Origin: Acidimicrobiales bacterium
Lineage (GTDB): Bacteria; Actinomycetota; Acidimicrobiia; Acidimicrobiales; SZUA-35
Assembly: GCA_047638695.1 (NCBI GenBank)
Contig: JBLINY010000009.1
Span: 9,234-73,233 of the forward strand
Length of the DNA: 64,000 nucleotides
Direction: 5' to 3'
In this document: positions 16,738 through 55,116 of the stretch, piece by piece
How the letters are laid out: each line of letters starts with the position of its first letter
Position numbering within the stretch: the stretch's first letter is position 1
Notes under the pieces: model-generated
Database searches by the model: none
What the model was told of the DNA's origin: nothing
The model's input: the letters and a program-made list of their open reading frames with translations, nothing else
Made by a program: the position numbers and the translations under genes

Positions 16738-16768
16738 CGATCTCCCCAGGCGTTCGTATGCTCAGGGC

Positions 16769-17929
16769 ATGTCGCTTGCAGGTGTTTCGGTCGTCGAGTT
16801 TTGCGAGGTGGCCGCAGGGCCCTACTGCGCCATGCTTTTGGCTGACCAGGGGGCTGATGTGGTCAAGGTCGAGAAACCGGATGGCGATGCAATGCGATCC
16901 TGGCCTCCGCTCACCCCGACCAATGACGGCGCCGACGACGGCTACAGCGAAAACTTTGCGTCGGTAAACCGAAGCAAGCGTTCGGTTGTGCTCGACATGA
17001 AGACCGAACCGGGATTGGCTGCGGCCAAAGCCCTCATCGCTCGGGCCGATGTGGTGATCGAGAATTACCGACCTGGAGTGATGGCAAAGCTGGGTATCGA
17101 CTACGAAGCCATGTCGGCGGTGAACCCGGGGGTGACCTACTGCTCAATTTCCGCCTTCGGTCAGGAAGGGCCGCGGGCGACCGAGGGTGGTTTCGACCTC
17201 ACGATGCAGGCCATGGCCGGTGTCATGAGCGTCACTGGCGAACCCGGAGGAGCTCCGGTGAAGTGCGGCGTTCCCTTGTGCGACTTTGTGGCGGGACTGT
17301 ATGGCGCGTTCGGAATCGCGTCGGCGTTACGGGAACGGGAGCAGACGGGCAAAGGCCAGCACATTGATGTCTCGATGCTGGGGACGACCTTGGCCATCGG
17401 TGCCCTCCAGACCAGCGAATTCTTCGGCACCGGAGCCGACCCGCGTAAGCTCGGATCAGCTCACCCTCGCAACGCCCCCTACCAAGCCTTTCGCTCCGCC
17501 GATGGCCACTTTGGCATGGCTGCTGGCAACAACAGCCTTTGGGAGCGAGTTTGTGAGGTCGTTGCCCTGCCCGAACTGGTCGGAGACCAGCGCTACCTGA
17601 CGCCGGCGCTGCGCGCTGGCAACCAAGATGGCCTCCGCGAAACCCTCGAGGCCGTGTTCACGACACAATCCTCGTCCCACTGGCTGACGGCGTTCGCTGC
17701 AGTCGGCGTGCCGTCGAGCCCAATCAACTCGTACTCCGACGCGCTCGCCGACCCACAGGTTGAGCACATGGGTTGGGTACGCGACATGACCTTGCCGAAC
17801 GGGGTGCAGACCGAAACGTTCGGTCCTGCCCTACGCGTCAACGGCCAGTCGCTACCGATTCAGTTCGGCCCACCGCTGCTGGGCCAACATACTGACGAGG
17901 TTCTGGCTGAACTAGGCCTCTCGCTCTAA
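16769..17929 (+). CDS. Family III (CaiB/BaiF) CoA-transferase
   Basis: In-frame ATG 16769 within ORF 16727..17929. GVSVVEFCEVAAGPYCAMLLADQGADVVKVEKP, VVIENYRPG, GFDLTMQAMAG. Confidence 0.85.
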   Translation: MSLAGVSVVEFCEVAAGPYCAMLLADQGADVVKVEKPDGDAMRSWPPLTPTNDGADDGYSENFASVNRSKRSVVLDMKTEPGLAAAKALIARADVVIENYRPGVMAKLGIDYEAMSAVNPGVTYCSISAFGQEGPRATEGGFDLTMQAMAGVMSVTGEPGGAPVKCGVPLCDFVAGLYGAFGIASALREREQTGKGQHIDVSMLGTTLAIGALQTSEFFGTGADPRKLGSAHPRNAPYQAFRSADGHFGMAAGNNSLWERVCEVVALPELVGDQRYLTPALRAGNQDGLRETLEAVFTTQSSSHWLTAFAAVGVPSSPINSYSDALADPQVEHMGWVRDMTLPNGVQTETFGPALRVNGQSLPIQFGPPLLGQHTDEVLAELGLSL

Positions 17930-31916: not shown

Positions 31917-33389
31917 TCAACTGCTGAGCTCCCCAAGGTGACGCAGTGCGGCCACCGATGGGCAGAACAGATACGCCGCACCAACGGTCTGGATGAAACG
32001 AGGGAACCCCGAGAGCACGACCGGGGGTTGACCGTTCCCGACCGGGATCACGAATCGACTGGTCGATGGACGGTTTGCTCCCAAGATTGGATCATTCGTT
32101 CCCGTGATAGAGGGATCTAACAAGCCGAGGTTGATCCAGTCGTACATGACCGCCTCGAATTGGGCGATGATGCTGGCGCACAGAAAGCTGCCCAGTAGCC
32201 CCCTGGGCTGACCATCGTCGGGTTCGCCGGGGTTCATCGGAGGCCCGTACGGCACACCCCGGCGAACCATCGGACGCGTGTAGTTGGCGCTTCGCTGGGC
32301 GATGCGGGCGCTTCGCGGATTCGCTCGGCGTATGTGCGAGCCGACAGGACAAAATAGACCTTCGAAATCATCAAGCTCGACAGCTTCGTTCGGATAGTCG
32401 AAGAAGTTGATGGTTTCCTCGTCGACCCTGGGCATGCGGATGTCCTTGAAATCTCGGGACTCAAGCAACGAGGGGGTCAGGGGAGCCCCGTTGCGCCAAC
32501 GGCCCATGAGTTTCGCTGCGACAAGTTCGCGGTCCCAACCTGTTTGGGCTGCGCTGTCGTCGAGGAAGGTCTCAAAGCTGTGCACATCTTGCTCGAGCAC
32601 GCGAAAAGCATTGAAGCAACCGTTCAAGCCGTAAGGGTCAGCGAGCTTGCGCCAAGTCACATTCGGGAACGTGGTCTTGTAGTCGGGGCCAAGCAGGACT
32701 GCTCCGACCGGGGCTAACGGCTGTGCGTCCGCTTTGCCGATGGGTTCACCGTTCACGACAAATCGAGGCTGGGCGATGCTGTCTCGATAGCCGAAATGGA
32801 CCTTGTCGCCCAGGCCATCGGGCTCGCCTCGTTCGAAGCCATCACGCTCGAGGTCGTCTGGCAGGAACGCGCCATCGAGCTTGGCCGTCACGGTGAAGGC
32901 CCCCGACCGACGCCACGCCAGCTCGAGCTCGGCGTCGACGGCGTCGCGCTCGTCGGCGGTTTCCCCGTGAATGGTCCACATGAGGTGGACCTTCTCGGGG
33001 TCATCCATCCCGTAACGCCACCGGTGTGGCGCACTCTCATCAACGTCACCGACCTTGGGCCCTCGGGCAGTAGCCCCGGCTCGAAACTCCGATGGGAATG
33101 AGTTGAGGGCGCTGGCGCTCACCCCCAGAGCCGAGAGCCCCGAGGCGGTTATGGCGACATTGAGACATGTCGCCGGTTTGCTTGTCCACCACTCGGCCGT
33201 GGTGATCGAGAGTCGGGGTGGGGCCGCGTCTGCTGGCCGGCCGGGGTTTGAAAGGAGAGGCACGACGGCAGCGAGGAACTTTCGAGCGGCTGTCCGATCG
33301 GCGACGCGAACCACGACGTGACGAACGAACTTCAGGTGGTAGCCCCGCAAAATATTGCCTTGAACATCGCTGAGGTCGACGTGGGTCAT
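31917..33389 (-). CDS. DyP-type heme peroxidase (long form)
   Basis: ORF 31917..33404. The likely start is ATG 33389, 4 nt after the stop of the upstream ORF. N-terminal LSDVQGNILRGY, FGYRDSIAQP (GxxDG-like), proximal-His motif VGSHIRRANPR. Confidence 0.85.
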   Translation of the reverse strand: MTHVDLSDVQGNILRGYHLKFVRHVVVRVADRTAARKFLAAVVPLLSNPGRPADAAPPRLSITTAEWWTSKPATCLNVAITASGLSALGVSASALNSFPSEFRAGATARGPKVGDVDESAPHRWRYGMDDPEKVHLMWTIHGETADERDAVDAELELAWRRSGAFTVTAKLDGAFLPDDLERDGFERGEPDGLGDKVHFGYRDSIAQPRFVVNGEPIGKADAQPLAPVGAVLLGPDYKTTFPNVTWRKLADPYGLNGCFNAFRVLEQDVHSFETFLDDSAAQTGWDRELVAAKLMGRWRNGAPLTPSLLESRDFKDIRMPRVDEETINFFDYPNEAVELDDFEGLFCPVGSHIRRANPRSARIAQRSANYTRPMVRRGVPYGPPMNPGEPDDGQPRGLLGSFLCASIIAQFEAVMYDWINLGLLDPSITGTNDPILGANRPSTSRFVIPVGNGQPPVVLSGFPRFIQTVGAAYLFCPSVAALRHLGELSS

Positions 33390-33393
33390 AGCG

Positions 33394-34035
33394 TCACCAT
33401 CCAATCTTCAATGCGTCGCGGATCTGGGCCGCCGAGAAGCCCGGATAGGCCCGGTAGACAAAAACCTGGGCGTTAGGTTCGGCGTCCAAGACGAGCGCCA
33501 GGTTGCGGGGCAGTTTCAGCGGATCGTCGCTCAGTTCGGTGACCTGCTCCGGAAGCTGAAACGCATCGTGCTCGATGACCCACTCGATGAAGGCATCGGG
33601 GTGAGACTCGACCGGTAAGGGCGGCGGATTGGCCACAAACTCAAGGAGGGCATCGAACGCTCCACCAATGTTGTAGATGAAGTCTCTGATGTAGTTGGAG
33701 AAATCGCCGTCGTAGATGCTGAACATGCAAAGACTTCCGTCGACGATGATGAAGCGTCCGAAGTGAACAATGCCGGTATTGTTGAGGCCGGAGTGCACCT
33801 CTTCGATCGCCGGGGCCAAAGCCCCCACGAGCCGCGCACGGGCAATGGGCGACGGATCAGCTAGCGGCATCACCAGGTTCATGGCTGTCTGTACGTTGTC
33901 CGACGGGTTCATCGAGAACGGGTGTTTCGGAAGAACGGGTGGTGGGTCGCGCCAACGCCAAAAGGCGAGAAGTTTGCTTTCGAGCAGACGCTTGACCTTT
34001 GTCAGCGGCCGCCTGGAATATCCGTCTTGTGCCAC
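33394..34035 (-). CDS. Hypothetical protein translationally coupled to the DyP gene
   Basis: 213-aa ORF (GTG 34035; alternative ATG 33912). No recognisable catalytic motif. Conserved-looking core NTGIVHFGRFIIVDGSLCMFSIYDGDFSNYIRDFIYNIGGAFDALLEFV. Its stop (33394-33396) is 4 nt from the DyP ATG. Confidence 0.6.
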   Translation of the reverse strand: MAQDGYSRRPLTKVKRLLESKLLAFWRWRDPPPVLPKHPFSMNPSDNVQTAMNLVMPLADPSPIARARLVGALAPAIEEVHSGLNNTGIVHFGRFIIVDGSLCMFSIYDGDFSNYIRDFIYNIGGAFDALLEFVANPPPLPVESHPDAFIEWVIEHDAFQLPEQVTELSDDPLKLPRNLALVLDAEPNAQVFVYRAYPGFSAAQIRDALKIGW

Positions 34036-34131: not shown

Positions 34132-35358
34132 ATGGACGAGTTCACGGCCAAGCTGATCGAGGGTATGCACGCCGACTTCGCGCCGGGGCGAGGCGAGCCC
34201 GAACTCGGCCTCGACCGTGGCCACCAACCGGGGACTCGTCCGATCCACAGTTCAGGCATCAGCGCGGTGGGTTGGTTTCGTGGGACGCATGCGGCGGCGC
34301 GCTACTGCACAGCTCCCCAGTTTGGGCGATCGTGGACACCCGTGACGGTTAGGTTCTCGAACGGCAACGGTGCCCCCGACCCTGATGGCGTGCGCCAAGT
34401 CCGAGGTATGGCCGTGAAGTTTCATCTTGGGGAGACGACGTGTGACGGCGAGGGCCCACACACCACGGCCCACACGACGTGCGGGGTTTTGAAGTCTCCC
34501 GCAGAGTCCGATCTCGTCTGCATGTCGGTTCCCATGTTCATGGTCAAGGAGGCCGAGGGCCTGCTCGACTTCGAGAAGGCCTATCTTCCTCGGGCCGTGC
34601 GTCGACCGGGTCTGACGAAACGGCTCAAAGCGATGGCCAGCCTCATACCTTTGCCTACGACCGATCCGGGCACCCTGAAGTCCGGAAACAACGGCCTCAT
34701 CGCCTACGCCCAACGGACGCCGGAGGCGCGCGCTTTCATCGCTGCCAACGCCATGTTAGGGCCGCCAGACAGTTACGGACGCACTGCCTACCACGCCGTG
34801 CACGCGTTCGAACTGGAGGGAGAGTGCCCTGATGGACTGCATCAGCACGGCGAGATCTGCCCGGGCCGGCAGCGCCACATGGGTCGATTCTCTCTGGAGC
34901 CGGGCGATGGAGTTCGGCTCGAGTATCAGGACGGCGACAGACCGGCGGATGGTCAACGGCCGTTAGCGACCCTAGAAGATCTGGAAGCTGACTATCTGAA
35001 ACGCGAGCTCGAGCGACGACTCGATCGATTCGTCAGTGTCTTCAACCTACGAATGCAGCTGGCCGACCCCTGGGACGACACCTCGGACCCGACAACTGTG
35101 TGGCCGATGACTCGCAAGCGGGTGCTGATGGGATCACTGGTACTCCATCACATTCCTTCCGATCAAGATGCCGGGTGCGAGAAACTGAGCTTCAACCCGG
35201 GTCAGCTAGCGCCAGGCATGGGGCTGTCGGATGATCCCGTGCTTCGAGCCCGAGTTGCGGTCTACGAACAATCCCAGGCCCATCGAGAGGCACAGACCTG
35301 CCCGTTTGCCCATCGAGCTACTGGTTCGGCTCCGTTAGAGCGCTCCGCACCTGTTTGA
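34132..35358 (+). CDS. Catalase-related hemoprotein (mini-catalase; srpA / allene-oxide-synthase size class)
   Basis: 408-aa ORF. Distal-His region RPIHSSGISAVGWF. TPVTVRFSNGNG....RGMAVKF (catalase core pattern). Proximal-Tyr motif RARVAVYEQSQAHR. It is much shorter than typical ~480-750-aa catalases. Confidence 0.8.
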   Translation: MDEFTAKLIEGMHADFAPGRGEPELGLDRGHQPGTRPIHSSGISAVGWFRGTHAAARYCTAPQFGRSWTPVTVRFSNGNGAPDPDGVRQVRGMAVKFHLGETTCDGEGPHTTAHTTCGVLKSPAESDLVCMSVPMFMVKEAEGLLDFEKAYLPRAVRRPGLTKRLKAMASLIPLPTTDPGTLKSGNNGLIAYAQRTPEARAFIAANAMLGPPDSYGRTAYHAVHAFELEGECPDGLHQHGEICPGRQRHMGRFSLEPGDGVRLEYQDGDRPADGQRPLATLEDLEADYLKRELERRLDRFVSVFNLRMQLADPWDDTSDPTTVWPMTRKRVLMGSLVLHHIPSDQDAGCEKLSFNPGQLAPGMGLSDDPVLRARVAVYEQSQAHREAQTCPFAHRATGSAPLERSAPV

Positions 35359-38172: not shown

Positions 38173-38204
38173 GCGTTCGTGCGTTCGTGCGTTCGGGCGT
38201 CTTG
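38173..38204. repeat. 8-bp tandem repeat x3-4 (GCGTTCGT) in a 244-nt divergent intergenic region
   Basis: GCGTTCGT at 38173 and 38181, GCGTTCGG at 38189, GCGTCTTG at 38197. Lies 25 nt upstream of the CoA-transferase ATG 38229. Confidence 0.85.
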
Positions 38205-38228
38205 CCACCGCCGACTACGGTCGGTCGG

Positions 38229-39446
38229 ATGGACGGGGATCAATCGCACGAAGCCACTGGACCGCTGCGAGGCAAGCGAGTGATCGACCTTGGGACCCTG
38301 CTGGCCGGCCCGGTCGCAGCTACCTTGCTGGGCGATTTCGGTGCCGAGGTCATCAAGGTCGAGCAGCCCGGTGTCGGTGACACCCTTCGGGGAGGGGTGG
38401 TTGCCGATGGGCAACCTCCACGGATGGCCTGGTTGGTCGAAGGACGCAACAAGCGCTCGGTCACCATCAACCTGCGCACGCCGGAGGGTCAGGAGCTCGT
38501 GCGGAAGCTGGTCGCCACCGCAGACATCGTGGTGGAGAACTTCACTCCGGGCACGCTCGAGGGCTGGGGCCTTGGATGGGATGACCTCCAAGCGGTGAAC
38601 CCCAAACTCATCATGGTGCGGGTATCGGGGTTCGGACAGACGGGCCCCTACAGCGAGCGGGCGGGCTATGACCGAATTGCACTGGGGGTTTCGGGCTATC
38701 TGTATCCCACCGGTTATCCCGACCGGCCACCAGTTCGGCCCGCTTTCCCAACCGCCGACTACAACACTGCTACCTTCGCCGCCCTTGCCGCCATGTTCGC
38801 TCTTTACGAACGCGATGCCCAGGGTGGCGCGGGCCAGATGATCGATCTGGCCCTCTACGAGGCTCCATTTCGCATCACGGCTGACCTCATCGGCACGTTT
38901 CGACAGCGAGGGGAGCTTCGCGAACGGATTGGCAACCGAAACCCCGGGTTCACTCCGGCTGGGAACTTTCTGACCAGCGATGATCGATGGATCCAGATTG
39001 CGGCCGGCGGCGATCGCCCCTGGCGGCGACTGTGCGAAGCCATGGGAGTACCCGAGCTGGCCGATGACGAGCGGTACCTCACGTCGCGTGACCGGCATGG
39101 CCGGGCCGACGAGTTGGAGGAGCTTTTGCGTCAGTGGGTAGCAACCGTCCCCTTCGACGAGCTCGAGGACCTTCTAGCCGAGCACAACGTGCCCGCCGGT
39201 GGAATTTTGACCGCTGCCGACATCTCCGACCATCCGCAGTTCGAGGCCCGAGGCAACATTGCGATTGTCGACGATGGCCACGGGAACGATGTGTCGATGC
39301 CGTCGCCGACACCGAACCTGGTCGGCACCCCGGGAACAATCCGCCATGCCGGACAAGACTTGGGCCTGGAAACCGAGGCCATACTCTCCGAGCTTGGGCT
39401 TGACGCCTCCGACGTAGCCGACCTGCGCGACAAAGGCATCGTGTAA
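38229..39446 (+). CDS. Family III (CaiB/BaiF) CoA-transferase
   Basis: In-frame ATG 38229 within ORF 38187..39446. GKRVIDLGTLLAGPVAATLLGDFGAEVIKVEQP, IVVENFTPG. Confidence 0.85.
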   Translation: MDGDQSHEATGPLRGKRVIDLGTLLAGPVAATLLGDFGAEVIKVEQPGVGDTLRGGVVADGQPPRMAWLVEGRNKRSVTINLRTPEGQELVRKLVATADIVVENFTPGTLEGWGLGWDDLQAVNPKLIMVRVSGFGQTGPYSERAGYDRIALGVSGYLYPTGYPDRPPVRPAFPTADYNTATFAALAAMFALYERDAQGGAGQMIDLALYEAPFRITADLIGTFRQRGELRERIGNRNPGFTPAGNFLTSDDRWIQIAAGGDRPWRRLCEAMGVPELADDERYLTSRDRHGRADELEELLRQWVATVPFDELEDLLAEHNVPAGGILTAADISDHPQFEARGNIAIVDDGHGNDVSMPSPTPNLVGTPGTIRHAGQDLGLETEAILSELGLDASDVADLRDKGIV

Positions 39447-39479: not shown

Positions 39480-40958
39480 CTAGACCTGTTCGGCTTTGCT
39501 GTTCTCGAGAGTGAAAAAGGCGAGGACCATACCCATCGCGGCGTAGGCGGCGATGAGGTAGTGGGCTATCCGCCAGCCATCGAGGAAGGCAACATCGGCG
39601 CTGGCTACTTGGGCGATCTGACTGAGGGGAATGTCGAACCCTCGCGAGACCATCACGCCCACCACCACAGCCGACGCGATGGCCTGCCCGAAAACATTCC
39701 CCAAGTTGCGGGTGAGATTGGTGAAAGCGCCAATCACTCCGAGACTTGCCGGCGGTACCGACCCGAGAATCGCTGAACTGTTGGGGACGTTCCACATGCC
39801 CTGGGACAGTCCAGTCAGAAAGACCAGGAGTGTCACCGTCGTGATACTCGTCTCAGCGGTGATGAAACCCATGGCCAGCGCGATCGCACCCATCAGACCG
39901 AGACCGCCAACGGTGAAAGGGCGTGACCCGAGGCGATCCGAGAGTCGACCCGACGTCTGTGCGGCCATACCCATGCCCAGCGAGATCAGAAACAACACGG
40001 CTCCAGCGCCGCCCTCGGCCATGCCACGAAGGCTGATGAGGTAAATGGGGAGCAGGAAACGGGTGGTGGTCGAACCCATGAACCCGAGGAATCGGGTGGC
40101 GACTCCCATCGTGAAGCGAGTGATCGTGAAAAGGCGAAGCTGAAGCATTGGCGCCACATGGCGAAGTTCCCAACGCACGAACGATGCGAACAGCAGCACC
40201 ACCAACACGAAACCGCCACTGATCAGGGGTGACGTCCACGGCACCCCGAATGGATTGTTGACGGTCAGCACGAGGACGATCACGCTCAGTCCCGACAGGA
40301 TGGCACCACCCCAGTCGAACGCATCCGGTGGCCCAGATCGTTCGCCACCGACCCGCTCTTCGTCGAGGATGAAGTAGGCCGCGACCCAGGCGATGCTGAT
40401 CGGCACGATGAGGACGGCGAACAGCACCTGCCAGGGAAAGACCTGAAGCATCAGCCCGGCAAAGATCGGGCCTGAGGCTCCTCCGATCGAGACCGCCGTT
40501 GTTTGGCTGCCAACCGCCTTGCCGCGTTCTGCCGGAGGGAAAACCGAGACGATCATTGCGGTGCCGACCGATTGCCCCATCGCGTTTCCGAGCGCCATGA
40601 CGAGCCGAGCGGCGATCAGAAGAAGGAAGGTGGGGGCCGCCGCGGTGAGCACCGCGCCGAGACCAAAAATGGCTAATCCGGTGAGGTGCACCTTCTTGCG
40701 GCCGACGATGTCGGCCAGTCGCCCCATTGGCAGCATGACGGCGCTGATGACGAGGGCTTCGACGATCACCACCCAGCTGACGGCCCGAAGGGTGACGCCG
40801 AAGTCGTCAGCGATCGCCGAGAGAGCGACGAAGACCATCGACATGGTCATGACCATGGTGAAAAATGAGAGCCCGATGGCGGCGAAAGCTTTCCACTTGT
40901 AGCCGTCGTCGGCATCAAGGGTTGTCTCAGAATCGAGAAGCTCGGACACCGGACGCAT
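39480..40958 (-). CDS. MFS transporter, DHA2 (14-TMS drug:H+ antiporter)-like
   Basis: 492-aa highly hydrophobic ORF with about 14 predicted helices. MFS motif-A-like GRLADIVGRKK. Confidence 0.85.
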   Translation of the reverse strand: MRPVSELLDSETTLDADDGYKWKAFAAIGLSFFTMVMTMSMVFVALSAIADDFGVTLRAVSWVVIVEALVISAVMLPMGRLADIVGRKKVHLTGLAIFGLGAVLTAAAPTFLLLIAARLVMALGNAMGQSVGTAMIVSVFPPAERGKAVGSQTTAVSIGGASGPIFAGLMLQVFPWQVLFAVLIVPISIAWVAAYFILDEERVGGERSGPPDAFDWGGAILSGLSVIVLVLTVNNPFGVPWTSPLISGGFVLVVLLFASFVRWELRHVAPMLQLRLFTITRFTMGVATRFLGFMGSTTTRFLLPIYLISLRGMAEGGAGAVLFLISLGMGMAAQTSGRLSDRLGSRPFTVGGLGLMGAIALAMGFITAETSITTVTLLVFLTGLSQGMWNVPNSSAILGSVPPASLGVIGAFTNLTRNLGNVFGQAIASAVVVGVMVSRGFDIPLSQIAQVASADVAFLDGWRIAHYLIAAYAAMGMVLAFFTLENSKAEQV

Positions 40959-40986
40959 ACGGCAACGACCCTAGGAGCTACGGTTT

Positions 40987-41907
40987 GTGATGGCCGATTT
41001 GGACAACGAACTACCAGAAGCCTTCGCGACGCAACCCATCCAGTACCTCAGCCGTACACGAGCGTGGTATTCGGCCTTGGGGTACGAGCCGTATCGCTGG
41101 CCGCACAACGATGAGGTTCCGTTCGCCCCACTCGACAAGCCGCTGTCGGAGTGTCGCCTCGGGCTCGTCACCACTGCCGCGCCGCATCAACCGGACAAGG
41201 GTGATCAGGGTCCCGGAGCTGCCTATAACGGCAGCGCCAAGTTCTTTGACGTCTACTCATCTGAGGTCGCCGATCCTCTTGACGTCCGGATCTCACACAT
41301 CGGCTACGACCGCAACCATTCCAAGGCCGACGATCCCAACACATGGCTGCCGCTGCCTCGTCTGCACGAAGCAGTAGCGGCGGGCCGAATTGGTTCGCTG
41401 ACCGAACGTTTCTATGGGGCCCCGACCGTTCGACGGGTTCGCAGCACCACCGAGGAGCACGCTCCACGGATCGTCGAGATGTTGCAGGAGGATGGCGCTG
41501 ACATTGCCCTGCTCGTTCCCACTTGACCCGTTTGCCATCAGACGGTCAGTTTGACCGCTCACGCCATCGAGTCAGCCGGCATCCCCACCGTTGTAATGGG
41601 AGCAGCAAAGGACATTGTCGAGCACGTTAGCGTTGCCCGGTTCGCCTTCAGCGACGTGCCGCTTGGCAACTCGGCCGGGCTGCCTCACGATGTGGATTCG
41701 CAGCGTGAGGTACTCGATTGCGCCCTCACCCTGTTCGAGAAGGCGTTTGCACCGCGAACCACGGTGCAAACCCCGGCTCGCTGGAACGGCGGGGATCACA
41801 CCTGGAAGCACGACATGATGAATCGTGAACAGCTCGATCCGGAGGCAGTGGCCAAGGCCAAGGCTGAGTTCGAGCGCCAGAAGGAGTTGGCCAACCTCAA
41901 CCGGTAG
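40987..41907 (+). CDS. GrdB/PrdB-family (glycine/sarcosine/betaine/D-proline reductase component-B-like) protein with an in-frame TGA at 41524-41526, putative selenocysteine
   Basis: ORFs 40987..41526 and 41551..41907 share one frame and are separated only by the TGA. Read-through gives ...ADIALLVPT-U-PVCHQTVSLTAHAIESAGIPTVVMG (U-x-x-C). The second half has no ATG/GTG start or SD. A hairpin lies 16 nt downstream of the TGA. Confidence 0.65.
41543..41557 (+). promoter_or_regulatory. Candidate bacterial SECIS-type hairpin CGGUCA-GUU-UGACCG
   Basis: Perfect 6-bp stem with a 3-nt loop that begins with G. It starts 16 nt after the UGA. An alternative hairpin, UGACCCGU/ACGGUCA (41524-41548), includes the UGA itself. 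Confidence 0.4.
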
Positions 41908-43366
41908 GGCTTGTCTGGCCGATGTTTTCGTCCAGGGCGCGGTTGATGAGGTTTTTCGTGATGCCACTCACCGTTGGGTCGTCGAGGCCATAGGCCCAGT
42001 CGGTACATCCGGTCGTAAACACCCAGCCCTGGCCCAGGCGATGGGTTCCCATCACCGCGTGGCCGCCTTCGAAGATGGCCCGAGTTTCGGCCGTGTCACT
42101 TCCCGCTAGCCGCTCCGCGACCCAGTTGAGCTCGCCCACGTAGTTGGCCAGGCCGGCCGCGATCTCGTGGGTTTCCCAGAGTTTGGCCGGAGCGGTTGCC
42201 AGAATCTCGAAAGCCAACGGGGTGCCATCGATCCCGGTGGGCCGGGGTATGCCGTCGACCAGCTCGAAGTCACAGCCATCGCACTCGTAACCAACGACCA
42301 TGCCATCGCCCCCGACGACGTCGCCGGGTTCGAGGTCGAGGCCGGCGAATACCCAGTGCGCTGGTTGATGGACTGAGTAGCCACCACCCTCAGGAGCGTG
42401 AGGCATGTTGGCGTAGCCGCCGCGGGTGAAACTTACGCCGGTCATTTCGTTCTCGGGCCGACGGCACAGCGGGTCGCTCCACATCGTCGAGACCGATGTC
42501 TCGCTGTCGCCGCCAACCACGGGATCCTGGTCGATGTCGAACTTGTAGCCAACAATCCGACGCCAATCGTTTTCCGGTCGGATCTGCCAGAAGGACGTGT
42601 TGCCCGAGAGGAAGAGGGCTGCGCCACCTTCAGCCACCCAGCCTTCGACGTTGTCTCGCATCGATGCCGACCAGTACTCGTCATGGCCGACACTGAGGTA
42701 GAGCTTGTACGGGGCAAGAAGCTCAGGATCGGTGGCCAGATCGGTGCTGGTCGCATAGTCGAAGGAGATGCCCTCAGATTCGGCCCACGCCACGAACAAT
42801 CGCTCCCAGTTGGCGAAACCGGCAGCTGAGGAGAAGAAGGAGTGAGTACGGAAGTGAGCCTTGATCTCGTCGCGAGGCATGTCGACATAGGCCGCGGCGC
42901 GAAAGCGTCGGGGGTCATCCTTGGCGAGGAAGCCCGTCGGCAATGGTCGTTCGAGCGACGAGATGCTCCCACCCGTGTAGAAGCTGTCGGCGCCCCAATG
43001 GTTGTAGGCAGCCCACGTTGACGTCGTTAGGACAAGCAGGGTGTTGCCAGGCGTGGAGGCTTTCACAACGAAGAACGCCTCGGCGCTTTCTCCATTCGGT
43101 GCGGTCAGCCGAACGAGATAGAAGCCTGATGCCCACGATGAGCTGACGGTGACCTGCAGGGTCGCTTCCCAACCACAGCCCTCGCGGACAATTGAATCGC
43201 TCACCGGTTGTTCGCTCACGGGCACATCGTGGTGACGATGGACCACGTCCTCGCCCGCTCCCACTCGAACAATCTCGACGTTGCACGTGGTCTGGTCGCT
43301 GCTGATCATGAGGGCAACGGTCTGGTCGGCTGCCGTTGACTGCGGCCAGCAATACGCATCAATCAT
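41897..43366 (-). CDS. N,N-dimethylformamidase large-subunit-like family protein
   Basis: ORF 41897..43396 (ATG 43366 preferred; GTG 43396 possible). From memory, LLVLTTSTWAAYNHWGADSFYTGG and the overall length match the DmfA2-like family. 11-nt convergent overlap with the GrdB-like gene. Confidence 0.65.
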   Translation of the reverse strand: MIDAYCWPQSTAADQTVALMISSDQTTCNVEIVRVGAGEDVVHRHHDVPVSEQPVSDSIVREGCGWEATLQVTVSSSWASGFYLVRLTAPNGESAEAFFVVKASTPGNTLLVLTTSTWAAYNHWGADSFYTGGSISSLERPLPTGFLAKDDPRRFRAAAYVDMPRDEIKAHFRTHSFFSSAAGFANWERLFVAWAESEGISFDYATSTDLATDPELLAPYKLYLSVGHDEYWSASMRDNVEGWVAEGGAALFLSGNTSFWQIRPENDWRRIVGYKFDIDQDPVVGGDSETSVSTMWSDPLCRRPENEMTGVSFTRGGYANMPHAPEGGGYSVHQPAHWVFAGLDLEPGDVVGGDGMVVGYECDGCDFELVDGIPRPTGIDGTPLAFEILATAPAKLWETHEIAAGLANYVGELNWVAERLAGSDTAETRAIFEGGHAVMGTHRLGQGWVFTTGCTDWAYGLDDPTVSGITKNLINRALDENIGQTSPTG

Positions 43367-43418
43367 CGCCGAGACCGTATCGATACCCCCGGCCACCCCG
43401 CCATGTCAGACTTCGGCA

Positions 43419-49962: not shown

Positions 49963-51021
49963 GTGCCCATGAAACTGGGCATGAGCATCAACTACGTCGG
50001 CGACTTCCACGCATCGGTCCAGCAGGTGGTCGAGTATGAAAAAGCTGGCCTTGATGTGGTCTGGGTTGCCGAGGCCTACAGCATCGATGCCGTCAGCCAG
50101 ATCGGCTACTTGGCGGCCAAGACCGAGCGAATCGAGATCGGCTCGGGCATTCTCAACGTCTACTCCCGTAGCGCTTCGGCCATTGCCCAAACGGCCGCCG
50201 GATGTGATTACGTCAGCGACGGACGCTTCATCCTGGGACTGGGAGCTAGCGGACCGCAGGTCATCGAGGGGTTCCACGGAATCCCGTACGAGAAGCCGAT
50301 GAAACGCATCAGCGAGTACATCGACGTCACCCGCATGACACTGCGTCGCGAGCCGGTGGTCTACGACGGCACCACCGTGCAGATCCCATTGCCGGAGGGG
50401 CAAGGGACGGGTCTGGCGAAGCCATTGAAGCTCATCAATCATCCCGTGCGTAGTGAGGTCCCCATCTGGTGGGCGTCGCTCATGCCGTTATCGGTGAAGG
50501 CAACGGCGAAGTCGGCAGATGGCTGGCTACCGGTGTTCTTTGTGCCTGATGAGTTCCAAAAAGTGTGGGGTGACGACTTGAAGGCTGGCACCGCGCAGCG
50601 TGATCCGAGTCTCGGCACCCTCGACATCGGGGCGGGAGCGACCGTGGCGATTGGCGATCAATATGCCGGCCAGGGTGCCGATGCGGTGCTCGACCGAAGC
50701 CGCCCGACGACCGCTCTCTACTGGGGCGGCATGGGTGCACGTGACAAGAACTTCTACAACACCATTGCTCAAAAGTATGGCTACGAGGAAGAAGCCATCG
50801 AGATCCAGGACCTCTACCTGGATGGCCAGAAGGCGGCAGCGGCAGCAGCCGTTCCTCGAGACTTTCTGGAACGAGCAAACCTGGTCGGGCCTGCCTCCTA
50901 TGTAAAGGAACGCTTGGGAGCGTGGAAGGAAGCCGGGGTCACCGTGCTGAATGTGACGCCCGTTGGCGACGACCCCGTTGGCACGCTCGGTACGCTCCGC
51001 CAACTCATGGAAGACGCCTGA
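49963..51021 (+). CDS. LLM-class (luciferase-like) F420-dependent oxidoreductase
   Basis: 352-aa ORF. KLGMSINY....AGLDVVWVAEAYSIDAVSQIGYLAAKTERIEIGSGILNVYSRS is typical of the family. Confidence 0.85.
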   Translation: MPMKLGMSINYVGDFHASVQQVVEYEKAGLDVVWVAEAYSIDAVSQIGYLAAKTERIEIGSGILNVYSRSASAIAQTAAGCDYVSDGRFILGLGASGPQVIEGFHGIPYEKPMKRISEYIDVTRMTLRREPVVYDGTTVQIPLPEGQGTGLAKPLKLINHPVRSEVPIWWASLMPLSVKATAKSADGWLPVFFVPDEFQKVWGDDLKAGTAQRDPSLGTLDIGAGATVAIGDQYAGQGADAVLDRSRPTTALYWGGMGARDKNFYNTIAQKYGYEEEAIEIQDLYLDGQKAAAAAAVPRDFLERANLVGPASYVKERLGAWKEAGVTVLNVTPVGDDPVGTLGTLRQLMEDA

Positions 51022-52196
51022 TGATGAATATTTCTGGTGAGGTGGCCATCGTCGGCATCGCCGAGACCGACTACGTGCGGGGTTCAGACCAGTCGGTTCC
51101 TGAACTGGTGCTCGACGCCACCATGCGGGCTGTCCTCGATGCCGGCATCGACCCCAGCGAAGTGGACGGCATCATTCCACCACCCGGCTTCATCTCCAGC
51201 GAGGAGATCGCAGCAAACCTCGGGGCCTCCGAGATTCGCTATTCGGTCACGCTTCATATGGGTGGCGCCAGCCCAACCGCGGCGCTGCAGTCGGCCGTGA
51301 TGGCCATTGCCTCGGGTATCGCCACCACCGTCGTGGTGACCTACGGATGGAACGGCTATTCGGCCTTTCGCAAGCGACCAGGCACGCGGCCGTCCAAAAG
51401 AAAGATGGACCCGGGGCCGTTCATCGATGTCAGCCGCAACTTCTACGCTCCGTACGGCGTGCAGTCGGCTGTGCAGTGGTACTCGCTATACATCCAGCGT
51501 TACGTCGACCTCTATGGCATCACGCCTGAGCAGGCCGCCCAGGTAGCGCTGACCTGTCGTGAACACGCCCACCTCAACGACAAAGCACTCATGGGCGGTC
51601 GCCCGATGACCCTCGACGACTACATGGCGTCGCCCTACATCACCGAGCCAATGAGAAAGCTCGATTGCTGTCTCGAGACCGACTGCGCAGCAGCCGTGGT
51701 CTTGACCACTGCAGAACGGGCTAAGGATCTGCCGCACACGCCAGTGTTATGGCTGGGCGGAGCTGAGGGCCATCCCTACCCGGCCGACGAGATCACGAAT
51801 CGCCCAGACATGTTGAAGTTGGGTCTCGATTCAGCGGCGCCGAGGGCGTTCGCCATGGCCGGCGTAAAGCCGGCCGACATGGACTTTCTTCAAATTTACG
51901 ATTGCTTCACCTACGTCGTGCTGATGGAACTCGAAGCGATCGGGATGTGCGAGAAAGGAGGCGCAGGTGAGTTTGTCTCTGATGGCAACATCTCGCTCTC
52001 TGGGAAGTATCCGATGAACACCCATGGCGGATTGCTGTCGCAGGGGCATTGCTGGGGACTCAACCATGTGGTCGAGGCCACCCGGCAGCTACGCCACGAG
52101 GGCGGCAGAGCCCAGGTGGCTGACGCCGAACTGGGTGTTGTGACCGGCTATGGCGACCTTGGCGATGGTTCGATAGCCATCCTGGCAAGGGGCTGA
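51021..52196 (+). CDS. Thiolase-like protein (SCP-x / lipid-transfer-protein Ltp type)
   Basis: ATG 51021 overlaps the upstream TGA by 1 nt (inside ORF 50922..52196). VAIVGIAETDY, THGGLLSQGHCWGLNHVVEA. Confidence 0.85.
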   Translation: MMNISGEVAIVGIAETDYVRGSDQSVPELVLDATMRAVLDAGIDPSEVDGIIPPPGFISSEEIAANLGASEIRYSVTLHMGGASPTAALQSAVMAIASGIATTVVVTYGWNGYSAFRKRPGTRPSKRKMDPGPFIDVSRNFYAPYGVQSAVQWYSLYIQRYVDLYGITPEQAAQVALTCREHAHLNDKALMGGRPMTLDDYMASPYITEPMRKLDCCLETDCAAAVVLTTAERAKDLPHTPVLWLGGAEGHPYPADEITNRPDMLKLGLDSAAPRAFAMAGVKPADMDFLQIYDCFTYVVLMELEAIGMCEKGGAGEFVSDGNISLSGKYPMNTHGGLLSQGHCWGLNHVVEATRQLRHEGGRAQVADAELGVVTGYGDLGDGSIAILARG

Positions 52197-52197
52197 C

Positions 52198-52647
52198 ATG
52201 ACGGACTCTGGTGTCGAGAAGGTCAACCGCAAGTACGTCCCCAAGCCCGAAGGACTGAACCTCGAGTTTCACTTGGCCTGCGTCGAGAACGGACTGTTGA
52301 GCCTTCAACACTGCCTCGACTGCGGCGAGTTCCGTCATCCTCCCCGGTGGTACTGCCCCTCGTGTCATTCGGCCAACTACGAGTTCTCACCCGTTTCGGG
52401 CCGGGGCGAGATCTACTCGATGGCCATCAATCACTTCACCATCGACCGCGGCTGGATCGACGACCTCCCGTACATCACGGCAGTCGTCCAGTTGCCCGAA
52501 GGACCCCGAGTGGTCGGCTCGCTGCAAGGGATCGAAAAGAGCGCAGAAGCGGTCGGATCGGTGCCACTCGGTCAACCTGTCCAGATCACGGTCGAGCCCC
52601 GCGGAGACGAATTCGCCTTTCTAGTCGTCGAACGACTGGAAGGGTGA
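52198..52647 (+). CDS. DUF35 Zn-ribbon/OB-fold protein (thiolase-associated)
   Basis: 149-aa ORF. Cys4 ribbon CLDCGEFRHPPRWYCPSCHS followed by an OB-fold region. Starts 1 nt after the thiolase-like gene. Confidence 0.85.
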   Translation: MTDSGVEKVNRKYVPKPEGLNLEFHLACVENGLLSLQHCLDCGEFRHPPRWYCPSCHSANYEFSPVSGRGEIYSMAINHFTIDRGWIDDLPYITAVVQLPEGPRVVGSLQGIEKSAEAVGSVPLGQPVQITVEPRGDEFAFLVVERLEG

Positions 52648-52653
52648 CCGACC

Positions 52654-55116
52654 ATGCTGTCGCCTTACCGAGTACTTGACCTCTCCGACGAGCGCGGACA
52701 TCTGTGTGGGCAAATGTTGGCCGCCCTCGGGGCCGAGGTAATCGCCATTGAACCACCCAGCGGGTCGCGAGCGCGTCACATCGGTCCGTTCATCGACGGC
52801 ATCGACGATGGCGAGCACTCGCTCACCCACTTTTCCTACAATCGGGGCAAGAAGTCGGTGGTGCTCAACTTCGACCTGTTAGAGGAACGAGAGCGACTGT
52901 TTCACCTGATTGCCGCATCCGACGTGTTGATCGAATCCGATCGCCCTGGCCGTATGGCCGAACTCGGTCTTGGCTATGAGCAGGTGGCTGAGGAGTTCCC
53001 TCACCTTGTGTACGTCTCGATCAGCGCCTTCGGCCAGACAGGGCCGAAGGCCCACTGGGCGGCAACCGATCTCACGGTGATGGCCAGCGCCTGCACCATG
53101 TCGGTGACCGGAGACGAGGACCGACCACCCGTGAGAGTGACTGTCCCCCAGGGTTTCCACTTCGGCGCTGCTACCTCTGTCTCGGGCGTGATCGCCGCCC
53201 TCATCGAGCGCGACCACTCAGGCGAGGGACAGCACATTGACGCTGCTGCGCAACGCACAGCAACACTGGCGACACAGGCCGGCGTGCTCTCGACCGGCGT
53301 TGGAAGCATCGATGCCTCCCGTACCGCCGGGGGAGCCGTAACCGGGGCCATCAGGTTGCGGCTTGTGTACCCGGCGGCCGACGGGTTTGTCTCGATCACC
53401 CATGTTTTTGGCATGCCGATTGGGCAGAACACCCGTTGGCTCATGGACTGGGTGTGCGAGGCAGGGTTTTGTGACGAGGCCATGCGGGACAAGGATTGGG
53501 TTGGCTACCTGGTCGCACTTGAAAACGGCACGGAGCCAATTGCAGAGTGGGAAGCGGCCAAGGCAGCCGTGGCCGCCTTCACCAGCTCAAAGACCAAGGC
53601 CGAGTTGCTGGCCGGCGCTATGGAACGCCGTTTGCTGATGGCGCCGATCGCTACGCCGGCCGACGTCGTGGCCAGCGAGCAGCTGGCCGAGCGCGGCTTC
53701 CTCGAGGAGGTCGAGCACCCGGTAGCTGGCAAACTCCTCACCGTGCCGGGAGCGTTTGCAAAGTGTTCGGCCACGCCGTTGCGCCCGCTCGGTCCGGCAC
53801 CGACCTTGGGCCAACACAACGATGCAATCCTGGGCAAAGGCCGGTTGTGGCCGCGACTCGACCTCATTCCCCAGACTGGCTCACTCCGGCCTGACCTCGA
53901 TCCCGCAGGCGACTTACCGCTGAGCGGGCTGAAGGTCCTCGACTTCACCTGGTCGATCGCCGGCCCGCACGCCGTACGCGTCCTGGCCGATCTGGGTGCC
54001 ACGGTTGTGAAAGTCGAGTCGGCAAGCAAGCAGGATGCGGCTCGTGGGTACCGACCGGTACACAACGACGAGGCTGGCATCGAGAACTCCGCCCTCTTTG
54101 ACACCATGGCGGCTGGAAAGCGCAGCTTGGCCCTCGACATGTCGAAGCCGGGAGCGATCGAGGTCGTGCACGACCTCGTTGCTTGGGCCGATGTCGTCGC
54201 CGAGAGCTTCTCGCCACGAGCCATGCCCAAATGGGGACTCGACTACGAAAGCCTTCGGAAGATCAATCCGGAGATCATCATGGTTTCAACCTGTTTGGCC
54301 GGTCAGACCGGACCGCTGGCCAACTTTGCCGGCTACGGGAATCTTGGGGCCGCTCTGGCCGGATTTTATGGTCTGGCCGGCTGGCCCGACCGAGCACCGG
54401 CCGGGCCTTTCGGCGCCTACTCCGACTACACCTCGACCCACTTCCTGGCGGCAACAATGCTGGCTGCGATCGACCATCGCCGTCGCACCGGCGAGGGTCA
54501 ATACATCGACTTGGCGCAGTCCGAAGCAGCGCAGCACTTCCTGTCACCAGCCCTCCTAGAGGTGACCGCGAACAATCGGGTGATGGAACGCGACGGCAAC
54601 CGTGACCCACACATGGTTCCTCATGGCGTGTACCCCTCTGCCGAAGACGATTCTTGGATCGCCATTGCCTGTGAAGATGACGCACAGTGGCGAGCACTCG
54701 CGTCCATGATGGGTCGAGACGATCTGCTGAGCGACTCCGGGTTAGGCTCGCTCGCTGGCCGCCTGGCACGAGTGGATGAACTCGATGCCGCTGTCGCTAC
54801 ATGGTCAGAACAGTTCGAAAACACCCAGCTCGACCAAAAGTTGCAGGAGGTCGGTGTGGCCGCCCACGCCGTGCTTACCGGGGCCGGCTGCCTTGCTGAT
54901 TCACAGTTCGCTCACGCAGGCCATTTCTTGCGTCCCGATCACCCCGACCGGGGTTGCCTTATCGAGAACACCAGATTTCGAATGTCGCGCACGGCAACCA
55001 ACGTCAACACTCGAGCCCCATTCTTGGGTGAGCACACGTTCGAAATCCTCACCAATGTGCTTGGCTACAACAATGACCGAATCGCCCAACTGGCAGCGGC
55101 CGAAATTCTGGAGTGA
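52654..55116 (+). CDS. Fused double-domain family III CoA-transferase
   Basis: 820-aa ORF with two complete CaiB/BaiF modules. YRVLDLSDERGHLCGQMLAALGAEVIAIEPP and LKVLDFTWSIAGPHAVRVLADLGATVVKVES. Confidence 0.85.
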   Translation: MLSPYRVLDLSDERGHLCGQMLAALGAEVIAIEPPSGSRARHIGPFIDGIDDGEHSLTHFSYNRGKKSVVLNFDLLEERERLFHLIAASDVLIESDRPGRMAELGLGYEQVAEEFPHLVYVSISAFGQTGPKAHWAATDLTVMASACTMSVTGDEDRPPVRVTVPQGFHFGAATSVSGVIAALIERDHSGEGQHIDAAAQRTATLATQAGVLSTGVGSIDASRTAGGAVTGAIRLRLVYPAADGFVSITHVFGMPIGQNTRWLMDWVCEAGFCDEAMRDKDWVGYLVALENGTEPIAEWEAAKAAVAAFTSSKTKAELLAGAMERRLLMAPIATPADVVASEQLAERGFLEEVEHPVAGKLLTVPGAFAKCSATPLRPLGPAPTLGQHNDAILGKGRLWPRLDLIPQTGSLRPDLDPAGDLPLSGLKVLDFTWSIAGPHAVRVLADLGATVVKVESASKQDAARGYRPVHNDEAGIENSALFDTMAAGKRSLALDMSKPGAIEVVHDLVAWADVVAESFSPRAMPKWGLDYESLRKINPEIIMVSTCLAGQTGPLANFAGYGNLGAALAGFYGLAGWPDRAPAGPFGAYSDYTSTHFLAATMLAAIDHRRRTGEGQYIDLAQSEAAQHFLSPALLEVTANNRVMERDGNRDPHMVPHGVYPSAEDDSWIAIACEDDAQWRALASMMGRDDLLSDSGLGSLAGRLARVDELDAAVATWSEQFENTQLDQKLQEVGVAAHAVLTGAGCLADSQFAHAGHFLRPDHPDRGCLIENTRFRMSRTATNVNTRAPFLGEHTFEILTNVLGYNNDRIAQLAAAEILE

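Follow-up and report, generated by a model that had tools for sequence, protein, structure and literature searches.

A predicted selenoprotein of the GrdB/PrdB superfamily in an Acidimicrobiales bacterium, and the overlapping hairpins downstream of its UGA codon

In a contig from an Acidimicrobiales bacterium, a reading frame related to the selenoprotein B subunits GrdB and PrdB is interrupted by an in-frame TGA. Does this codon end a short protein, or is it decoded as selenocysteine (Sec)? The frame lies within a 64,000-nucleotide (nt) stretch (contig JBLINY010000009.1 of assembly GCA_047638695.1, positions 9,234 to 73,233), which we refer to as the window and number from its first letter. 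A preliminary description had joined two open reading frames (ORFs), 40987..41526 and 41551..41907, into one gene; they do share a frame, and TGA 41524-41526 is the sole stop between them. The read-through product reads ...EDGADIALLVPT-U-PVCHQTVSLTAHAIESAGIPTVVMG..., as given there, and runs to TAG 41905-41907, with the predicted Sec residue in the context DIALLVPT-U-PVCHQTVSLTAHAIESAGIPTVVMG. Public annotation of the locus consists of a product of 178-179 amino acids (aa) plus a separate 103-aa ORF downstream. From the sequence comparisons below, we predict with considerable confidence that 40990-41907 encodes a single 305-residue selenoprotein in which this TGA is read as Sec, the likely start of the gene being ATG 40990 (or GTG 40987).

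Among more than 7,000 homologues found by database search, the best full-length matches (~310 aa), which came from Rhodopila, Acetobacteraceae, Rhodospirillales and similar, were 58-63% identical to the read-through protein, aligned with it end to end and all carried VPN-C-PVCHQT. The TGA lay opposite the invariant first Cys of C-P-V-C-H-Q in 15/15 and in 55/55 full-length homologues. Among 50%-identity representatives the family was reduced to few clusters (51 matches at E<=1e-30), and nothing was added. DNA was fetched and examined for 80 genome loci and 80 metagenome loci, and the codon at this column was counted over 166 loci. It was TGA in 85, TGC in 70 and TGT in 11, with no TAA, no TAG and no other residue. 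That the TGA occupies the Sec/Cys position of a U/C-x-x-C motif, as had been proposed from the window sequence, is thus borne out by the alignment and by the column codon in 166/166 loci. When the N-terminal 178 aa served as the query, more than 100 further clusters were found (60-87% identical, 167-196 aa), and all the complete short clusters stopped at ...LVP[T/V/S/N], i.e. at the same column.

TGA forms were found in Acidimicrobiales metagenome-assembled genomes (MAGs), which are the closest to the window (65-67% identity), in Rokubacteria/Methylomirabilota, in Chloroflexota (Dehalococcoidia, Anaerolineaceae) and in Reyranella-like Alphaproteobacteria. The hosts of Cys forms were Bradyrhizobium, Rhodopila, Belnapia, Siccirubricoccus and others. 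Neighbour-joining placed the Sec forms in one large clade, in which two Cys sequences were nested, apart from a Reyranella Sec pair that fell inside the Cys clade. The nested Cys forms, L056 (a Tepidiformaceae MAG) and L164, are candidates for recent Sec-to-Cys conversion. The residue directly before the column (41521-41523 in the window) was T, V or S in TGA forms (N being rare) and N in all Cys forms seen. Either this difference marks the clades, or Sec insertion or chemistry requires such a context.

The same TGA is present in 9 independent metagenome contigs (L001-L009) from at least 8 samples, in which the N-terminal product is identical, and in the relatives L010 and L011, which are ~90% identical; it is therefore not an assembly error. 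TGA is also the stop used most often in the window, where it terminates 27/54 genes, and 45/63 Sec-form genes themselves terminate at TGA, which excludes a reassigned genetic code. A scan across the window for other in-frame TGA candidates gave none that was convincing.

Downstream of the TGA, at least 125 open codons were found in 63/63 testable TGA loci (median 128 vs 130 in Cys forms). Between the window and L010, the ratio of nonsynonymous to synonymous substitution rates (dN/dS) was 0.034 upstream of the TGA and 0.028 downstream, with dS saturated (~2). The GC content at third codon positions (GC3) was 0.69 before the TGA and 0.76 after it, similar to other window genes. The earliest in-frame start codon 3' of the TGA is TTG 41551 (codon 9), followed by ATG 41596 (codon 24); as the preliminary description had stated, the downstream half has no Shine-Dalgarno sequence of its own, none being found before either codon. 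The eight codons that precede the first possible restart specify the invariant PVCHQT and, within it, the motif's second Cys. Together, these results support translation of the downstream half in the same frame.

Hairpins downstream of the UGA

A Sec codon in a bacterial gene is expected to be followed by a selenocysteine insertion sequence (SECIS), and the preliminary description had pointed to the hairpin CGGUCA-GUU-UGACCG. This hairpin is present and is compatible with the bacterial SECIS (bSECIS) model, but it is not the hairpin that is conserved in the family, which lies 5 nt upstream. In the family hairpin, 11 nt separate the UGA from the stem and 17 nt separate it from the 5-nt loop, which has G at position 1 or 2. 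Over 56 distinct Sec sequences 95% of cells were paired, the five core pairs were essentially invariant, and the closing pair showed a C-G to U-A double change in 6 Sec sequences, the window included. In the window the family hairpin contains one G-U pair and has an energy of -5.3 kcal/mol for the core and -7.8 kcal/mol when extended, while the consensus family hairpin has -8.5 to -11 kcal/mol. The hairpin described earlier starts 16 nt past the UGA, has its loop GUU 22 nt from the UGA, and has an energy of -7.6 kcal/mol (-8.8 extended). Across the 56 Sec sequences 73% of its cells were paired, and two of its six pairs were broken in 40 and 48 of the sequences.

The bSECIS constraints are a loop of 3-9 nt, a G among the first two nucleotides of the loop, a distance of 16-37 nt between UGA and loop and an energy of -7.5 kcal/mol or lower (PMC13188914). 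Both window hairpins, the family one in its extended form (-7.8) and the one described earlier (-7.6), satisfy them. Like the elements captured by the bSECISearch model, with E. coli fdhF as the prototype, the window structure is a stem-loop in the coding region right after the UGA, with a stem of 6-7 bp plus an extension. It differs from them in that its primary sequence is unrelated to those described, and the window offers two overlapping, competing hairpins.

The region also encodes the conserved H-Q-T-V-S-L, so conservation alone proves little and the contrast between Sec and Cys forms is decisive. The Ser codon was AGT in 54/60 Sec forms (GGT in the other 6), whereas among Cys forms (n=79) AGC was found in 41 and AGT in 3. 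The pair 18/26 forms in 98% of Sec forms vs 6% of Cys forms, and the mean local folding energy was -12.1 kcal/mol in Sec forms and -7.1 kcal/mol in Cys forms. Third-position entropies for codons +4..+9 were 0.47, 0, 0.29, 0.64, 0 and 0 in Sec forms, compared with 0.75, 0.10, 0.90, 1.02, 1.33 and 1.11 in Cys forms; flanking codons had ~1.0-1.5 in both groups. The synonymous sites of codons +4..+9 are constrained in Sec forms only.

When the first 12 nt were blocked, 48/56 Sec sequences folded as the family hairpin, and the window and L066 folded as the type described earlier. Window positions 41543-41557 differ from the corresponding segments of the two close relatives (L010:595-609, L011:864-878) by four synonymous changes, ACC>ACG, GTG>GTC, CTG>TTG and ACT>ACC. 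Together, ACC>ACG, GTG>GTC and ACT>ACC make two pairs of the hairpin described earlier, and CTG>TTG turns a pair of the family hairpin into G-U. The SECIS register may thus have shifted in the window lineage.

A covariance model trained on 53 Sec forms other than the window found the window site as a unique match in 64 kb (46 bits, E 4e-7). The top scores, 65-74 bits, were those of a Sec subgroup with Ala in place of Pro two residues before Sec, ...LVA[T/V]-U-PVCHQ (L020:10523, L039:10520, L063, L138, L143, L168), which includes Chloroflexota MAGs (Dehalococcoidia, Anaerolineaceae).

Family membership and a recurrent CoA-transferase neighbour

Family scans were run on the 305-aa read-through protein with Cys at the TGA position. 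Pfam GRDB (PF07355) matched with 37.2 bits against a gathering cut-off of 22, residues 35-178 aligning to model positions 206-347 of 347. The final position of the model falls on residue 178, directly before the TGA, which is where a model derived from Sec-truncated GrdB sequences would be expected to end. The best NCBIfam match was PrdB TIGR04483 (E 8e-30), which covered model positions 19-221 of 238 (203 positions) and spanned the Sec column; its score of 104 bits is under the equivalog cut-off of 300. TIGR01918 ('various_sel_PB', glycine/betaine/sarcosine/D-proline reductase selenoprotein B) gave 45.8 bits, under its cut-off of 65.45, and the GrdB equivalog TIGR01917 gave 36.1 bits, under 602. 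The GRDB/PrdB membership proposed in the preliminary description therefore holds, with the Pfam threshold passed and PrdB as the top NCBIfam match. Since the curated equivalog and subfamily cut-offs were missed, the protein belongs to the superfamily and is not a PrdB or GrdB orthologue. These profile matches assign the window gene, which stands alone, to the GrdB/PrdB (Pfam GRDB) superfamily, with PrdB as its most similar member, and model coordinates suggest that its TGA would correspond to the Sec column of authentic PrdB and GrdB.

In the homologue alignments P180, C182, H183 and Q184 were invariant, as were K84, R100, S102, H103, D107, R108, H110, D208, E211 and N227 outside the motif. 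In an AlphaFold model of the Cys homologue P0008 (predicted local distance difference test score, pLDDT, 84.7; predicted template modelling score, pTM, 0.88), the CxxC is located between a beta-strand and the N-terminus of a helix.

PrdB (TIGR04483) of Clostridium/Acetoanaerobium sticklandii and C. difficile shares the U-x-x-C motif with the window protein (PMC2398784, PMC9312934) and has a core domain of similar size. Unlike PrdB, the window protein has extra N-terminal (~40 aa) and C-terminal (~50-aa helix) extensions, and its gene has no prdA (pyruvoyl proprotein), prdC, prdD, prdE or prdF nearby. Hosts of the GRDB-like proteins are presumably aerobic soil or marine Actinomycetota, Rokubacteria and Alphaproteobacteria, not Stickland fermenters. 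With GrdB, GrdF and GrdH (PF07355, TIGR01917/TIGR01918) the protein has in common the Pfam GRDB match above threshold and the UxxC Sec motif. However, the GrdB, GrdF and GrdH models were matched through their C-terminal halves only (~204-385 of 431 for GrdB), the window motif is UxxC-H-Q whereas UxxCxxC is reported for GrdB (PMC13188914), and grdA, grdE, grdC, grdD and trxAB are not found nearby.

Similar proteins are known from ocean metagenomes. In a survey of Sargasso Sea data, 'proline reductase PrdB' (pfam07355, UxxC) ranked third in abundance among the known selenoprotein families, with 42 genes (PMC1088965). A survey of the Global Ocean Sampling (GOS) data likewise had PrdB among its top selenoprotein families and counted 235 Sec and 110 Cys forms (PMC2398784). 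The non-Stickland Anaeromyxobacter and Geobacter, too, are listed with 'proline reductase' selenoproteins (PMC1794560). The ocean-metagenome proteins share with the window protein the Pfam family, the UxxC motif, the Sec/Cys dimorphism and their occurrence in non-Stickland environmental bacteria. They were named proline reductase by homology, and the available text of the surveys does not discuss their genomic context or a coenzyme A (CoA)-transferase partner (PMC1088965, PMC2398784). They and the window protein are very probably the same kind of protein. Because PrdB-like Sec proteins have been listed since 2005, Sec in environmental PrdB-like proteins was already established bioinformatically, and the window gene joins them.

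Pfam scans were run on 46/54 window ORFs, and the other 8 (6 of them within 6 kb downstream) were covered through precomputed matches of the syntenic locus L003. By Pfam, none of grdA/C/D/E, prdA, other Prd/Grd partners or thioredoxin is present in the 64-kb window, in agreement with what had been said of the nearby genes, and none recurs in 140 related loci; the window ORFs comprise only catabolic enzymes, transporters and regulators. The preliminary description had further called the gene an orphan. In the window no partner adjoins it, but most other lineages have a family III CoA-transferase directly downstream. Among informative loci, i.e. those with at least 1.7 kb of downstream sequence, a CoA_transf_3 gene (~397 aa) lay directly downstream on the same strand in 28/36 Sec loci and 37/61 Cys loci (65/97). 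The partner CoA-transferases are 53-58% identical to each other across phyla, and they start at ~+390..+430 nt past the Sec/Cys codon on the + strand (e.g. L016-L018, L072, L076, L081-L087). De novo clustering of the neighbourhoods also recovered an ABC ATPase, TctC, a luciferase-like oxidoreductase and an amidase, each in at most 15/140 loci. The window protein itself has the size (~305-315 aa) and the [U/C]-P-V-C-H-Q motif of the stand-alone GRDB-like/CoA-transferase group, as we define it here. No description of the GRDB-like/CoA-transferase pair or of the stand-alone architecture was found in the searchable literature, which held nothing relevant beyond work on fluoroacetate in Synergistota.

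Proposed mechanism and rival explanations

By analogy with the standard bacterial mechanism, the stem-loop in the coding sequence downstream of UGA 41524-41526 would recruit SelB-GTP-Sec-tRNA(Sec). The recruiting element would be the family hairpin 41538-41554 or, in the window lineage, the overlapping 41543-41557. Sec would then be inserted and 126 further codons translated to TAG 41905. In the product, the U179-x-x-C182 pair is expected at a strand-to-helix junction. Homology to PrdB/GrdB suggests that the selenol could act as a nucleophile or redox centre that cleaves or reduces a bond of the substrate; Sec179 might end as a Se-S bridge with Cys182, to be re-reduced by a thiol system. As no pyruvoyl subunit, GrdA, GrdC/D or thioredoxin genes lie alongside, the substrate is presumably not glycine, sarcosine, betaine or D-proline processed by a classical complex. 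The only recurrent cross-phylum partner is the family III CoA-transferase, which points to chemistry on a CoA thioester; for the GRDB-like protein this is speculative, and we regard it as somewhat unlikely. It is a quite doubtful suggestion that the GRDB-like protein and the CoA-transferase form an undescribed two-component system for reductive C-N (or C-X) cleavage of a CoA-activated substrate, the window gene having been re-wired to other neighbours (MFS transporter, formamidase-like amidase, aminotransferase) and its SECIS shifted by 5 nt. This suggestion concerns Rokubacteria, Chloroflexota and Alphaproteobacteria, in Sec or Cys form. If true, 'Stickland-like' selenol chemistry would extend into soil and marine bacteria, hosts that are presumably aerobic.

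Several results weigh against the selenoprotein prediction or the functions suggested for it. Searches of Rfam found no SECIS or other RNA family, either in the whole window at gathering thresholds or in 41400-41700 at E<=10; bacterial SECIS elements are poorly covered by Rfam. Folded as a single sequence, 41524-41571 is unremarkable (z = -1.68), and the significance of the structure thus rests on comparison with relatives and not on the window alone. The unconstrained minimum-energy fold of the window is a third structure, which pairs the UGA itself. Most helix pairs never vary, so that the covariation support rests on one pair. The 46 bits of the window lie inside the range of Cys homologues (17-58) and under the held-out Sec forms (65-74 bits), making the SECIS region atypical in the window lineage. 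The covariance model was dropped as a discriminating test, as its score is mostly coding conservation and the window lineage was not separated from Cys homologues. No selA, selB or selD was found by tblastn with E. coli SelA, SelB and SelD in the 64-kb window and the flanks (up to 10 kb per side) of ~170 loci; two weak SelB (GTPase) matches in Cys-form loci were judged generic. ARAGORN found no tRNA-Sec in the window or in any of the loci, and the window has no tRNA at all. As context and not as evidence here, selA, selB, selC and selD are reported from all genomes of Actinomarina, another Acidimicrobiia order (2026 preprint, bioRxiv 10.64898/2026.04.03.716425). With regard to function, the P0008 model had no match in the PDB with E<0.04 or a template modelling (TM) score >0.3 by Foldseek, and the best PDB hit by sequence had E 0.27, i.e. 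there is no solved structure. The downstream CoA_transf_3 gene is absent from the window and from the actinobacterial Sec loci L012-L015 and L092-L095.

Could the TGA be a genuine stop? If so, the locus is either a pseudogene or a split gene that yields two separate polypeptides, which then come together, the second of them restarting at TTG 41551 or ATG 41596. The division made by gene callers, the frequent use of TGA as a stop in the window and the failure to see Sec machinery in the window or locus flanks are what such a stop predicts. However, in 85 loci from four phyla the stop is always TGA, never TAA or TAG, and stands on the catalytic Cys column. The invariant PVCHQT with its second Cys is encoded before any restart, neither restart codon has a Shine-Dalgarno sequence ahead of it, dN/dS is equal on both sides, and the synonymous-site constraint is restricted to TGA forms. 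We consider a true stop extremely improbable. Read-through of the UGA without Sec we consider very improbable. It would involve a near-cognate tRNA giving Trp or Cys, or Cys supplied via the Sec pathway under selenium limitation, with the hairpin slowing termination. Every Sec form has UGA-C, generally a weak termination context, and this explanation, too, is in keeping with the lack of Sec machinery in the window and flanks. Yet Trp at the catalytic Cys column would inactivate the enzyme, the position of the hairpin and its loop G fit the SelB-dependent bSECIS model (PMC13188914), and metagenome surveys repeatedly class the family as a selenoprotein (PMC1088965, PMC2398784).

If the gene does encode a selenoprotein, as we prefer, the functional SECIS of the window lineage could be 41543-41557 and not 41538-41554, its register shifted by 5 nt. 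With the first 12 nt blocked, 41543-41557 is the minimum-energy fold (-8.8 vs -7.8 kcal/mol). Three synonymous changes relative to L010/L011 add two pairs to it, CTG>TTG weakens one family pair, and the hairpin lies within the bSECIS constraints. On the other hand, the six core family pairs all form in the window, where the loop GGUCA retains its G first, and the difference of 1 kcal/mol is within the error of the energy model. Moreover, with dS relative to L010 saturated, finding four changes within 13 nt is unremarkable in itself. We take the shift as a tentative but credible possibility. A separate alternative concerns what the protein does: it may be a general thiol/selenol-disulfide oxidoreductase or a peroxidase-type redox protein, to which the CoA-transferase linkage would be incidental. 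A UxxC at the N-terminus of a helix is typical of redox proteins, no partner of the classical complexes accompanies the gene, and a catalase and a DyP peroxidase are encoded 6-9 kb away. This alternative seems unlikely to us, as the homology is to substrate-specific B subunits, the many invariant residues outside the motif (K84...N227) suggest a defined substrate pocket, and the adjoining CoA-transferase is conserved across phyla.

Decoding as Sec, the reading we retain, leaves knowledge of Sec decoding itself unchanged. It does restore the full enzyme; over 100 clusters of related sequences stop short at this codon, and the clade is systematically mis-annotated as fragments. This branch of selenoprotein B is very large (more than 7,000 database matches), belongs to abundant soil and marine lineages and switches between Sec and Cys. 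The conserved CoA-transferase neighbour provides a concrete, testable lead to function, and the Cys form is present in cultivable species of Bradyrhizobium, Belnapia and Rhodopila. The new leads are the CoA-transferase partnership, the mis-annotation of the clade and the possible SECIS register shift in the window lineage.

Features of the surrounding window

The predicted elements of the gene and its immediate neighbours are listed in Table 1.

Table 1. Coordinates of the predicted selenoprotein gene, its signals and its neighbours in the window
Feature	Position	Strand	Details
Selenoprotein gene (predicted)	40990..41907	+	305 codons from ATG 40990, alternative start GTG 40987; stop TAG 41905-41907
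AGGAG, Shine-Dalgarno-like	40973..40977	+	9 nt ahead of GTG 40987, 12 nt ahead of ATG 40990
In-frame UGA, predicted Sec codon (residue 179)	41524..41526	+	Aligned to the invariant Cys of VPN-C-PVCHQ in Cys homologues
U-P-V-C redox motif (Sec179...Cys182), predicted	41524..41535	+	Alignments of homologues
C-terminal 126 codons, translated only with UGA decoding	41527..41904	+	Open frame, dN/dS, GC3 0.76
Family-conserved hairpin UCAGAC-GGUCA-GUUUGA	41538..41554	+	Consensus YCAGAC-CGUGA-GUCUGR; outer pairs 41534/41558, 41535/41557
Hairpin of the preliminary description, CGGUCA-GUU-UGACCG	41543..41557	+	Overlaps the family hairpin and is mutually exclusive with it; lineage-specific
Major facilitator superfamily (MFS) transporter, divergent	39480..40958	-	Pfam MFS_1 in syntenic locus L003
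DMFA2_C (N,N-dimethylformamidase beta-like), convergent	41897..43396	-	Pfam PF20254, 253 bits
Family III CoA-transferase, 1.5 kb upstream	38187..39446	+	Pfam CoA_transf_3, 372 bits

The two flanking genes had been described as encoding an MFS transporter and a dimethylformamidase-like protein, and matches to MFS_1 and DMFA2_C confirm both. The DMFA2_C gene overlaps the final 11 nt of the selenoprotein gene (41897-41907), and this convergent overlap leaves no room for an intergenic terminator. Beyond it lie genes for an aminotransferase class III, APH, PNPOx, a glyoxalase, an acyl-CoA dehydrogenase and an AMP-binding enzyme. MFS homologues were found near the gene in just 3/139 other loci, the MFS context being kept within the window's own lineage only, and a DMFA2_C gene adjoining it was not found in the loci of other lineages. 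An IlvD-like protein encoded nearby shares 89% identity with proteins of 'Actinomycetia bacterium' MAGs and 83% with those of Candidatus Poriferisodalis and Acidimicrobiaceae, which indicates an Actinomycetota MAG, probably one related to Acidimicrobiia.

The window holds four CoA_transf_3 genes with five domains (2-1732, 16727-17929, 38187-39446 and 52654-55116), an unusual density for 64 kb. They sit among acyl-CoA dehydrogenases, amidohydrolases and oxygenases, and are 31-36% identical to the conserved partner of other lineages, which is the level of paralogues. The gene at 38187-39446 is a possible, but unproven, counterpart of that downstream CoA-transferase. Orthology is unsupported, as its identity to the partner (31-34%) is below that of the window paralogue 16727-17929 (36%). 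The gene at 52654-55116 (+ strand) encodes an 820-aa protein with two tandem CoA_transf_3 domains, an architecture that we take to be DddD-like. Upstream of it are a thiolase-like gene (50922-52196) and a ChsH2-like OB/zinc-ribbon gene (52198-52647), and a short-chain dehydrogenase gene comes next downstream.

On the - strand, 27715-30099 encodes a protein of 794 aa that matches the animal haem peroxidase family (362 bits) and carries a tetratricopeptide repeat (TPR) region at its N-terminus. The DyP peroxidase (31917-33404, - strand) and the catalase (34132-35358, + strand) are close to it. The animal haem peroxidase family is believed to be uncommon in Actinomycetota.

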